Assembly: GCF_024298765.1 (NCBI RefSeq)
Contig: NZ_CP101219.1
Direction: 5' to 3' (one strand)
DNA length: 2,353 nucleotides
Source: Escherichia coli
GTDB taxonomy: Bacteria; Pseudomonadota; Gammaproteobacteria; Enterobacterales; Enterobacteriaceae
This document shows positions 141 through 1,200 of this stretch, piece by piece (within the stretch, counting starts at the first letter, position 1; every line of letters starts with the position of its first letter). The translations under genes were made by a program, and so were the position numbers. Below the pieces are notes generated by a model, which saw nothing but the letters and a program-made list of their open reading frames with translations, had not been told where the DNA came from and did no database searches.

Positions 141-240
141 CACGTTTGGGGTGTCGGGGCTTGCCCTGACAGGAGGTATTCTCATGCAAGCGAATGTATT
201 CGCGGTATGACGAATACACATCCTGTCCCATTTTCCGCTA
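141..240. other. Candidate origin of transfer (oriT/bom-like) of the ColE1/MOBP5(HEN) type, upstream of the RHH gene start.
   Basis: GGGGTGTCGGGGC at 148-160 matches, from my recollection, the GGGTGTCGGGGC motif next to the bom/nic region of pBR322 and pUC backbones. It is followed by a GGGCttGCCC hairpin and nested inverted repeats GCGAATgtATTCGC (189-202) and GTATTCG-N9-CGAATAC (195-217). Its position just upstream of an MbeC-like gene matches ColE1-type MOB module layout. The nick site cannot be located by eye. Confidence 0.35.
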
Positions 241-597: not shown

Positions 598-1200
598 CCT
601 CGCAATGGGAGCATTAATCACCGTACAGTGCTCCGCCAGATGCTGGCGGCCTCAAATCCACCAAGCCGCCACGGTTCCGGCAGCGCCTTGAGCGCAACCG
701 GAAACCGACTGGGGAGAACCCCAGACCCCCACCGCTGCAACATCATCGGTCTGCGACCACCTACCAACCGAGTGGCTGCCTGTACCGTGCAAACGGGCTT
801 TGCAGGGGGCTGGCGCGGTTCCTGGCGACCTGAAAGCCCCTGGTTAGGGGTATCGGCGCGCCTGGCTTCCTGAAACCCTCTGTAAGCGTTTTTCGCGCCT
901 TCCATGCCCTGACGGGCATTTAGACCCCGTTTTGTGCGTTTGGGAAGTTCTGAGCGCGTTTAACAGATGGCCAGCGACTCGATCGCCTAGAATCAAATCG
1001 GGATCATCAACGATATGCGAGAGGTGGCACCGCTCGCCGCAGCCCCAGCGACCGAGCCGCCAGGCTCGCGAGTGGGCGAGGAAGCGGAAGGGAATCTGAT
1101 TCAACATAGTGCACTTACGCACAGAATTTGGCCTACGCGCCCGCGTCCGTGCACACGTTTAATAAGAATTAAGAAGGGAAATCGCGATAAACCGCGCCAA
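598..1200. other. GC-rich island with no credible coding frame; candidate structured noncoding RNA or cis-acting DNA element, function unknown.
   Basis: Abrupt change from AT-rich flanks to G/C-majority sequence. The four ORFs in the track here (63-95 aa) overlap on both strands and are Arg/Trp/Gly/Pro-rich, as expected for chance frames in GC-rich DNA. Hairpins: CCGCCAG-atg-CTGGCGG (633-649); nested CGGTTCCGG...GCGC-cttga-GCGC...CCGGAAACCG (672-707); CCCCT-ggtt-AGGGG (837-850); ATGCCC-tgac-GGGCAT (904-919). Palindromes: GGCGCGCC (855-862), CTCGCGAG (about 1064-1071), GTGCAC at 1110-1115 and 1149-1154. Confidence 0.4.
821..880 (+). repeat. Imperfect 20-bp direct repeat CCTGGCnnCCTGAAAnCC (821-840 and 861-880) flanking a hairpin and the GGCGCGCC palindrome.
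   Basis: cctggcgacctgaaagcccc versus cctggcttcctgaaaccctc, 16 of 20 identical, start-to-start spacing 40 bp. A third CTGGCG copy lies at 810-815. Confidence 0.5.

Follow-up and report, generated by a model that had tools for sequence, protein, structure and literature searches.

A candidate G4-type priming signal and a neighboring n'-pas homolog in a small Escherichia coli plasmid

In the 2,353-nucleotide stretch of Escherichia coli DNA that we analyzed (the window), positions 796-925 hold a conserved, folded element that is probably a plasmid version of the G4-type primase-dependent signal and that, together with the n'-pas homolog beyond it, would form a priming cassette relying on host factors only. 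The sequence-only reading of this DNA had proposed an organized functional non-coding element with real secondary structure, and with a pair of direct repeats as its organizing units. The structured element stands, whereas the repeats do not appear to organize it. The features concerned are listed here.

796-925, minus strand (as template): whole conserved element, a candidate G4-type priming signal ('G site'), from covariance model R1 and covariation
796-810, minus strand: block 1, plus strand GGCTTTGCAGGGGGC, minus strand GCCCCCTGCAAAGCC; the predicted primase start CTG is the complement of 803-805
804-831, plus strand: predicted primer RNA, 5'-AGGGGGCUGGCGCGGUUCC..., its putative length taken from the 28-nt G4 primer; it enters repeat copy 1
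821-842, no strand assigned: direct repeat copy 1, CCTGGCGACCTGAAAGCCCCTG, in the variable interior and overlapping the P1 5' arm
837-850, no strand assigned: hairpin P1, CCCCT-GGTT-AGGGG, from independent folds and covariation
855-899, no strand assigned: long-range stem P2, GGCGCG (855-860) with CGCGCC (894-899), from the RNAalifold consensus
861-882, no strand assigned: direct repeat copy 2, CCTGGCTTCCTGAAACCCTCTG, within the P2 loop
878-919, no strand assigned: most conserved core, CTCTGTAAGCGTTTTTCGCGCCTTCCATGCCCTGACGGGCAT, including hairpin P3, ATGCCC (904-909) with GGGCAT (914-919), from conservation across plasmids
1016-1125, plus strand: homolog of the ColE1 region with the PriA-dependent primosome assembly site (n'-pas, ssiA), from BLAST to ColE1

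Sequence and structure of the conserved element

The covariance model R1 scores the window copy at 138 bits and has 131 matches among plasmid and metagenome loci. Block 1 presents a 5'-CTG-3' on the proposed template strand within a G4-like sequence: CTGCAAAGCC (796-805, minus strand) occurs once in the window, against a chance expectation of 0.01, and the viral strand of phage G4 has the identical 10-mer at 3996-4005, where the primer of oric is annotated to start. The G4 annotation places the primer template at 3970-3997, ending at CTG. The corresponding CAG at 803-805 is kept in 76 of 79 distinct aligned homologs. The likeness to G4 oric extends to a C-run before the CTG, to three hairpins that lie 5' of the start on the template and to the polarity, which is the same. 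In some subfamilies a hairpin stands 3 nt 5' of the CTG, as in GCGCATGCGC-CCC-CTG, and stem-loop I of G4 likewise stands 3 nt away (CTA). In the window itself, however, the nearest hairpin, P1, is ~31 nt off, one 'hairpin' is a long-range stem with a 33-nt loop, and beyond the 10-mer there is no sequence similarity to G4.

All three stems are maintained by compensatory change. At the place of P1, independent folds of homologs give stems of other sequence (CCCGC/GCGGG, GCAGC/GCTGC, CGTAG/CTACG and CCTCGC/GCGGGG), with two-sided changes in 5/5 pairs. P2, whose 33-nt loop contains repeat copy 2 and the conserved CTCTGTAAGCGTTTTT, is independently predicted in R100 and in the loci L012, L013 and L014, and varies as GGCGCA/TGCGCC, GGGGCG/CGCCCC, GGCGG/CCGCC and GGCTA/TAGCC. 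P3 varies as ATGCCGC/GCGGCAT and ATCCGC/GCGGAT, and the core around it (878-919) is conserved in IncX4, an Arsenophonus plasmid, a Plautia symbiont plasmid, pNORD1_2 and R100. Overall, 95.8% of cells are paired and two-sided changes occur in 11 of 17 pairs, the P2 and P3 core pairs of the metagenome set having been fixed beforehand by the search pattern; this level is reached by 0 of 500 shuffles, and slid controls lie far lower. Additional IncX4 copies, which the model matched outside the scan pattern, also have compensatory P2 and P3. Conserved bases track the stem arms and blocks, not the register of the repeats, and among 46 window-type variants the arms and blocks are invariant while the loops vary. 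Taken singly, the sequences give modest folding z-scores, between -1.7 and -2.4; the whole island gives unremarkable ones, -1.3 on the minus strand and -2.0 on the plus.

A degenerate coding sequence, which the sequence-only reading had named as a way in which its view of the repeats could fail, is rejected: homologs differ by 1- and 2-nt indels, and the open reading frames at 618-905 (minus), 628-873 (plus) and 844-1122 (minus) have no Pfam match. Neither the window nor any of ten related loci gave an Rfam match within the element, and a promoter and terminator scan of the island gave nothing relevant. Several other candidates were considered and rejected. A ColE1-type RNAII/RNAI origin finds no RNAI match in the window at E up to 1, and the same Rfam scan detects RNAI in locus L009. 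A ColE1 origin relic on the minus strand, suggested by a likeness of the 872-925 complement to ATGCTCGTCAGGGGGGCGGAGCCTATGGAAAAACGCC, has neither a significant BLAST match nor RNAI, and BLAST of 600-1015 against the ColE1 origin found no significant similarity. GGTTCCTGGC (817-826), taken as a homolog of the CTGGCCTTTTG repeats downstream of the pMB1 origin, is a 10-mer match at chance level to which BLAST adds nothing. A cer/Xer site near 1150-1180 matches the XerC half-site at only 6 of 11 positions. A contig scan with GCCTYCCATGCCN{4,10}GGCAT proved too loose a pattern, almost all of its 120 matches being due to chance.

Direct repeats within the element

CCTGGCNNCCTGAAA is present twice, as CCTGGCGACCTGAAA at 821-835 and as CCTGGCTTCCTGAAA at 861-875; the motif occurs at these two sites only, and 200 shuffles give an expectation of 0. 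The likeness stretches to 22 nt (821-842 and 861-882) with 18/22 identities and a start-to-start distance of 40 nt, and a further CTGGCG lies at 810-815, just as the sequence-only reading had described. A direct repeat of at least 18/22 within 10-100 nt arose in 0.8% of 500 dinucleotide-preserving shuffles of the 601-nt GC island; the repeat is beyond chance, only moderately so. The copies bracket GGCGCGCC (855-862) and the hairpin at 837-850, as had also been claimed, and the pairing of 837-841 with 846-850 is borne out by covariation. GGCGCGCC had been described as a palindrome; it is present but not free, and because 855-860 pairs with 894-899 in P2 it is a stem arm. The likeness between the repeats runs on leftward, with the unit GGCGCG[GTT]CCTGGC..CCTGAAA beginning at 812 and again at 855, and the repeats therefore look like an old duplication of ~40 nt.

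The case for the repeats had been staked on their conservation in homologous islands, and this holds among the closest relatives, where both copies are fairly well kept, but not outside them. In 35 of the 76 unique variants two copies of a relaxed form of the motif are present, while the search for the exact pair that had been proposed for related plasmids finds it in just six of the 76. Copy 1 is kept only in the window-type and pNORD-like subfamilies; elsewhere unrelated sequence or a hairpin stands in its place, and it is missing from the L142-, L145-, L014-, L157-, L180- and L174-type elements and from R100. The 3' half of copy 2 (CCTGA.. CTCTG) is widely conserved and its 5' half is variable, the window's exact 15-mer appearing in one of 81 distinct rows. 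The window's copy 2 is unusually close to copy 1 because of lineage-specific bases: G865 differs in 39/45 relatives and T867 in 45/45. The upstream CTGGCG reads CTGACG in many relatives (G813 differs in 17/45 window-type variants) and likewise in pNORD1_2. The repeats are best read as sitting in the non-essential interior of the element and not as its functional units; in the model developed below, copy 1 would take in the last part of the primer template together with the P1 5' arm, and copy 2 would fill the P2 loop.

Plasmid contexts and the n'-pas homolog

The element occurs in hundreds of enterobacterial plasmids, where nearly every match lies under no annotation, and we found no open-access paper describing it in the literature on pKL1, Col(MG828), G sites and ssi. 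It accompanies at least three unrelated initiator families (RepL-like, Rep_3 and IncFII RepA), is also found without any MobA, and is retained in minimal 1.5-kb plasmids, in which almost nothing is dispensable. Wherever a copy lies near a rep gene, it has the same orientation as that gene in every locus checked. pNORD1_2 combines a RepA of the IncFII family with a PK-repBA leader, and there 463 nt separate repA from the element downstream of it; the IncX4 copy adjoining the rep gene keeps the core and lacks block 1. In the R100 homolog (L021; 45.5 bits with the model), the block-1 CAG falls at 30386 and the core at 30494-30519, downstream of repA1 and ~366-500 nt beyond the AT-rich region and DnaA box of oriR (29847-30020); in the numbering of the R100 record the homolog spans 90385-90519. 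The R1/R100 G site, with its 'blocks A-C', and the leading-strand start are reported from this part of the plasmid, and the homolog would correspond to them.

The G sites of R1/R100, ColIb-P9 and their relatives are reportedly primase-dependent priming signals, an identification said to go back to Masai and Arai in 1989 and Tanaka and colleagues in 1994 and, for the R1/R100 site, to Bernander in 1992 as well. They would resemble the window element in several respects: R100 has the homologous core and the block-1 CAG at the expected distance downstream of oriR, three conserved blocks surround a variable interior, the site lies downstream of rep in the same orientation, and host primase, instead of the plasmid initiator, is what the function is predicted to need. 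Unlike the G sites of the large IncF and IncI replicons, the window copy is found on tiny RepL-type and pKL1-like plasmids, and it has an internal duplication of ~40 nt and an n'-pas homolog directly after it.

Positions 1016-1125 are a candidate n'-pas by their homology to ColE1. Window positions 1016-1089 align with ColE1 1295-1364 at E 6e-7, corresponding to +97 to +166 from the RNA/DNA switch at ~1198; the ColE1 n'-pas would lie within the matched region. In four plasmid backgrounds the pas homolog is found again, on the same strand and ~80-130 nt beyond where the element ends, the element being a truncated copy in IncX4. The module follows the priming element in the loci L010 and L012 and in IncX4 plasmids, and is found in 4-kb MOBQ plasmids as well. 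In a literature search with sequence strings, those from the pas matched vector sequences only. In ColE1, ssiA lies downstream of the RNA/DNA switch and is exposed by leading-strand extension (Allen et al. 2011; PMC3167613). Like the n'-pas of ColE1/pMB1 (ssiA, rriA), the window homolog lies on the strand that rightward synthesis would displace. The window differs from ColE1 in being without RNAII/RNAI, and its leading-strand primer would be made by primase instead of being an RNase H-processed RNAII. The ssiA and ssiB sites of RSF1010 and the sso elements of rolling-circle plasmids are likewise short, folded, orientation-dependent signals that start complementary-strand synthesis, and neither shares sequence with the window element. 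The sso elements are read by RNA polymerase. RepB', a primase that belongs to the plasmid itself, reads the RSF1010 ssi sites (PMC8567376).

Priming model and competing readings

We infer that the element works as follows. The minus strand would become single-stranded and coated with SSB, while hairpins P3, P2 and P1 would remain on it, on the 5' side of CCCCCTGCAAAGCC. Host DnaG primase would read this fold and begin a short RNA primer opposite the T of CTG (the complement of 804); the primer would be plus sense, AGGGGGCUGG..., and DNA synthesis would proceed rightwards. This synthesis would displace the plus strand and uncover the pas homolog ~210-290 nt on (1016-1089), and at the exposed pas DnaB and primase would be loaded to serve the other strand. 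The two-module cassette appears to have been recruited beside different plasmid initiators.

The minus strand has the three hairpins 5' of its CTG, but the wobble pairs in the stems are asymmetric, with 29 G.T cells against 3 A.C cells when read on the plus strand, the cells being non-independent and the alignment having been fitted with an RNA model. This asymmetry points to the plus strand, or a plus-sense RNA, as the molecule that folds, and not to the minus strand. The plus strand also has conserved CTG motifs of its own, CCTGA at 869-873 and CTCTGTAAGCG at 878-888, so either strand may be the template. The element could accordingly act as a folded plus strand, either as plus-sense RNA (rep read-through or a leader, or primer-like) or as plus single-stranded DNA on which primase starts leftwards at the CTG of 870-872 or 880-882, perhaps with the minus site used too. 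CCTG (869-872) and CTCTGTAAGCG are highly conserved, the latter resembling the G4 start CTG-YAA-GC, and both the rep-adjoining IncX4 copy, with its core and no block 1, and the constant orientation relative to rep are consistent with this arrangement. We nevertheless think it unlikely: the exact G4-start 10-mer is on the minus strand, the leading-strand geometry reported for R1 needs the minus strand as template, the R100 and pNORD-like elements have ATG instead of CTG at 880-882, no Rfam family matches, and there is neither a promoter-like site upstream on the plus strand nor a terminator after the element. More doubtful still is a two-way priming module, in which the minus start CTGCAAAGCC at 796-805 would be opposed by a plus start at CTCTGTAAGCG (878-888) or CCTGA (869-873). 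If this were true, the shared fold would be selected on both strands, the internal duplication would be a trace of the origin of the second start, and the module together with the n'-pas would be a portable, initiator-independent 'replisome-loading cassette' that moves among RepL-like, Rep_3 and IncFII RepA replicons and the transfer-leading regions of conjugative plasmids.

The sequence-only reading had interpreted the phased repeats CCTGGC-NN-CCTGAAA as an array of duplex binding sites, iteron- or operator-like, for RepL, for the RHH protein/MobA or for a host factor. The excess over shuffled sequence, the confinement of the motif to two sites, a 40-nt spacing close to four helical turns and the persistence of both copies in close relatives all agree with this idea, which we regard as highly improbable. 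The repeats do not track the initiator, since three unrelated initiator families accompany the element and it is also present without MobA; nor is the pair conserved across subfamilies. Part of the similarity of copy 2 comes from private substitutions, conservation follows the stem arms and blocks, the palindrome is paired, and better candidate RepL sites, of the typical inverted-repeat or iteron kind, lie upstream of repL at 1228-1420. The same reading had offered repeated RNA structural modules as another possibility. This comes near to our view in that the element is a folded single strand; it is not the repeats, however, that form the folded units, and the evidence best supports single-stranded DNA, read by host primase, as the substrate. 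It is also very unlikely that the island is an inert relic of origin-proximal DNA from a ColE1-type or other replicon, with the repeats a neutral duplication. The island is a mosaic whose modules are shared separately with different plasmids, and its module C is clearly ColE1-related, as a relic would have it; against this stand the invariant arms and blocks of the window-type variants, the compensatory changes in distant copies, the persistence of the element in minimal plasmids and the lack of significant BLAST similarity between 780-1015 and the ColE1 origin.

On our preferred reading, that of a host-primase priming signal, the element is most likely an ordinary, unannotated case of a kind of signal already known. 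Biochemical work defined single-strand initiation signals around 1990; they are missing from Rfam and from genome annotation, and therefore a very common plasmid element stands unlabeled in hundreds of records. In practical terms, the repeats should not be taken for a protein-binding array. What the plasmids typed here as Col(MG828) by PLSDB have in common is the island and not a rep gene, so what this 'replicon type' follows may be a mobile cis-element and not a replicon. If the reading is true, it would account for how plasmids of 1.5-2.4 kb with one tiny initiator prime both strands by host factors alone.

Anatomy of a conserved non-coding element

The window is essentially a complete small Escherichia coli plasmid; five plasmids of 2.46-2.63 kb match it over at least 99% of its length, with 92-93% identity. 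The direct repeats that had attracted attention lie in its GC-rich island, inside a conserved element at 796-925.

Features of the plasmid and, from block 1 on, of the element (window positions)
From about 119, minus strand: NikA/MobA-like RHH gene, wrapping round the window ends
660-1125: island, about 62% GC, non-coding; the rest of the plasmid is AT-rich
1435-1968: RepL-family initiator gene (Pfam RepL, E 1.3e-9)
803-805: CAG of block 1 (GGCTTWGCAGGGGGC), present in 76 of 79 distinct rows
After block 1: variable stretch, holding repeat copy 1 (821-842) in the window; in other subfamilies an unrelated short hairpin directly follows block 1
837-841/846-850: hairpin P1, 3' of the variable stretch
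855-860: GGCGCG, 5' arm of the long-range stem P2, preceded by TATC
Between the P2 arms: loop of about 33 nt, holding repeat copy 2 (861-882) and ending in conserved CTCTGTAAGCGTTTTT
894-899: CGCGCC, 3' arm of P2, followed by TTCC
3' of TTCC: hairpin P3, ATGCCC-TGAC-GGGCAT

Metagenome contigs scanned with a specific pattern, pooled with the plasmid loci, yielded the element in 76 unique versions. P2 and P3 were recovered by RNAalifold, and the same two helices formed when R100 and the loci L012, L013 and L014 were folded separately. The position of P1 is occupied by subfamily-specific stems (CCCCT/AGGGG, CCCGC/GCGGG, GCAGC/GCTGC, CGTAG/CTACG and CCTCGC/GCGGGG). Across 81 distinct sequences, 95.8% of cells are paired and 11 of 17 pairs show two-sided changes, in an alignment that was fitted to the model and whose metagenome P2 and P3 cores were predetermined by the search pattern. 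Pairing and two-sided changes at that level occurred in none of 500 shuffles, and slid controls fell far below. Extra copies found by the model in IncX4 plasmids and elsewhere, outside the pattern's selection, carry compensatory forms of P2 (GGGGCG/CGCCCC, GGCTA/TAGCC) and P3 (ATCCGC/GCGGAT).

Gene annotation under the island is absent in nearly all records. Because homologs vary by 1- and 2-nt indels and a Pfam search of the island's ORFs returned zero matches, we conclude that the island is non-coding and reject a degenerate coding sequence. No Rfam family covers the island in the window or the related loci scanned. Elsewhere, weak, sub-gathering-score Rfam matches to Pseudomonas sRNA P9 and Bacillus ncr1175 at 1975-2062 on the minus strand arise from a bidirectional terminator-like hairpin (AAACCCGCC..GGCGGGTTT) between repL and mobA.

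The direct repeats

The sequence-only reading took the repeats for a protein-binding array on one face of the helix, or for repeated RNA structural modules. The repeats themselves are real: CCTGGCNNCCTGAAA occurs exactly twice in the window, at 821-835 and 861-875, against a chance expectation of none, and the similarity reaches 22 nt (18 of 22 identical) at a spacing of 40 nt. They are non-random to a moderate degree, an equally good direct repeat within 100 nt arising in 0.8% of 500 dinucleotide-preserving shuffles of the island. The bracketed hairpin, CCCCT/AGGGG, and the further CTGGCG at 810-815 are likewise present. GGCGCGCC is found at 855-862, but it is not a palindrome in its own right; it supplies the 5' arm of P2, which pairs with 894-899. 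By eye the similarity is longer, with a unit GGCGCG[GTT]CCTGGC..CCTGAAA beginning at 812 and again at 855, and the pair resembles an old tandem duplication roughly 40 nt long.

Both copies are situated in the variable interior of the element. Apart from the window-type and pNORD-like subfamilies, none retains copy 1; R100 and the other subfamilies have unrelated sequence there. Of copy 2, the 3' half falls in a portion of the P2 loop that is conserved widely, but the 5' half is variable. The window's exact 15-mer appears in 1 of 81 distinct rows; G865 and T867, which make the copies more alike, are specific to the window's lineage; and the upstream CTGGCG reads CTGACG in many relatives. Of the 76 unique variants, 6 contain the exact motif twice and 35 contain a relaxed form of it twice. 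The conserved positions track the stem arms and blocks rather than the repeat register, which leaves a phased protein-binding array for RepL or MobA unsupported. The direct repeats are a lineage-specific feature with no sign of a function of their own.

Immediately upstream of repL, 1228-1420 holds three copies of ATCTAACGTATCA and inverted repeats GGTATCAG(N4-5)TGATACC at 1332-1352 and 1400-1420. These are probably RepL operator or iteron sites, and the inverted repeats are better candidates for RepL sites than the repeats of the element.

A candidate primase-dependent priming signal

We consider the element most likely to be a primase-dependent priming signal of the G4 or G-site type. On the minus strand, block 1 reads GCCCCCTGCAAAGCC. 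In GenBank, phage G4 has its primer RNA template annotated at 3970-3997, and complementary-strand synthesis is marked as originating at 3998 (viral strand GTCCCTACTGCAAAGCCAAAAGG). The 10-mer CTGCAAAGCC, including the primase-start CTG, is identical between G4 and the window's minus strand, where it occurs once against 0.01 expected. The polarity is shared as well: the G4 template strand has three stem-loops 5' of its CTG, as the minus strand of the element has P3, P2 and P1. In several subfamilies a hairpin stands 3 nt from the CTG (GCGCATGCGC-CCC-CTG), resembling stem-loop I of G4.

The R100 homolog (locus L021, 30386-30519) has its block-1 CAG at 30386 and its core at 30494-30519. With the oriR DnaA box and AT-rich part at about 29847-30020, the element is some 370-500 nt downstream of oriR, which we take to be the mapped place of the R1/R100 "G site". 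That site is reportedly a primase-dependent signal at which the leading strand starts about 380-400 bp downstream of oriR. Plasmid G sites are said to comprise two essential domains, with three conserved blocks and a dispensable internal domain between, and to resemble G4 to a limited extent, near the primer start; the anatomy of the element agrees with this layout. pNORD1_2 carries its copy 463 nt downstream of a repA of the IncFII family, and the rep-proximal copy is co-oriented with the rep gene in every locus checked.

It is also possible that a second, opposed primase start lies on the plus strand, or that the plus strand has a function. Stem wobbles in P1-P3 (837-919, alignment A5) comprise 29 G.T and 3 A.C cells on that strand, which at face value would require the plus strand or a plus-sense RNA to fold, in conflict with a minus-strand template. 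Conserved CTG motifs occur on the plus strand as well, namely CCTGA (869-873) and the highly conserved CTCTGTAAGCG (878-888), the latter resembling the G4 primer start CTGCAAAGCC on the opposite strand, and the rep-adjacent IncX4 copy retains the 878-888 core without block 1. Since the wobble cells are phylogenetically dependent, fall mostly in P1 (the likely dispensable part) and were aligned by an RNA model that rewards G.U, we treat their asymmetry as a caveat to the minus-strand priming signal, not as a refutation.

Downstream of the element, window 1016-1089 aligns with ColE1 1295-1364 (E 6e-7), or +97 to +166 in RNAII sense from the RNA/DNA switch (GGAAAAA|CGCC, about 1198). In about this part of ColE1 lies the PriA-dependent primosome assembly site (n'-pas or ssiA; here pas). 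The order and strand of the element and the pas homolog are repeated in L010, the IncX4 plasmids and pNORD1_2. As the leading strand is extended, ssiA becomes exposed on the strand being displaced (Allen et al. 2011, PMC3167613).

By the mechanism we propose, the region would be opened by the plasmid initiator and a host helicase, by strand displacement, or by entry as a transferred single strand. DnaG would recognise the folded minus strand and begin a plus-sense primer at A804 (AGGGGGCUGGCGCGG...); DNA synthesis would run rightwards and displace the plus strand, thereby exposing the pas, where PriA would build a primosome for the other strand. The proposed logic is that of ColE1, but with a primase-made primer instead of RNAII.

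Distribution of the island

The island matches more than 1500 plasmid records. Its carriers include hundreds of 1.5-kb plasmids of the pO26-S1 type, whose sole gene encodes a 158-aa HTH protein; RepL plasmids of 2.3 kb in which repL is unrelated in DNA sequence; Rep_3-initiator plasmids (one of 5.2 kb from Shigella, others of type IncX4); and pNORD1_2 and R100 with IncFII-family RepA. It is a mosaic: 787-961 moves separately (as in L010), the core 872-925 is present too in an Arsenophonus plasmid and a Plautia stali symbiont plasmid, and 1030-1122 is found alone in 4-kb MOBQ plasmids, where the 1016-1125 module lies between mobC and rep. Full-length matches to 790-1125 (80-84% identity) occur in the phage-collection records OX638291.1, OR844749.1 and OR844798.1 (H131-H133; 1.4-1.9 kb, "Escherichia phage"), which look like small plasmids of the window's family mislabelled as phages.

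The island opens with three successive strong GC hairpins at 642-724 (GGCGGC..GCCGCC, GGTTCCGG..CCGGAAACC and CTGGGG..CCCCAG). Segment 660-790 is common only to Col(MG828)-typed plasmids and, in part, pNORD1_2; L010, without 660-787, is not so typed. All fetched loci typed Col(MG828) in PLSDB (L001, L002, L007, L008, L009, L011, L015) share the non-coding island alone and no rep gene, and the typing marker may be a cis-element rather than a replicon.

Window 148-235 lies just upstream of where mobA starts and shows about 74% similarity to the stretch right after the island in 1.5-kb plasmids (L003 1069-1154, L016 433-518). This is a probable oriT and would account for the MOB-suite label "mobilizable" on these relaxase-less plasmids. 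Additional full-length copies of the element were found by covariance model, all on the minus strand, at L004 16-152 and 2096-2232, L005 1225-1361 and 3305-3441, L193 491-634 and L018 3194-3327. Such copies occur in IncX4 and other conjugative plasmids, intergenic among small genes (J-domain, XRE and hypothetical proteins), and run opposite to the rep-proximal copy, with block 1 kept and P2 and P3 compensatory; they may serve to prime the transferred strand.

Plasmid primase-dependent and PriA-dependent single-strand initiation signals have long been known. In the literature searched, we found no description of such an element on RepL-type and 1.5-kb plasmids, of its wide distribution and extra IncX4 copies, or of the recurrent G-site-plus-pas arrangement. 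The island is a shared cis-module, not tied to the proteins of the window's plasmid; under the proposed mechanism no plasmid protein would be needed at the site, which would explain the association of the cassette with unrelated initiators.
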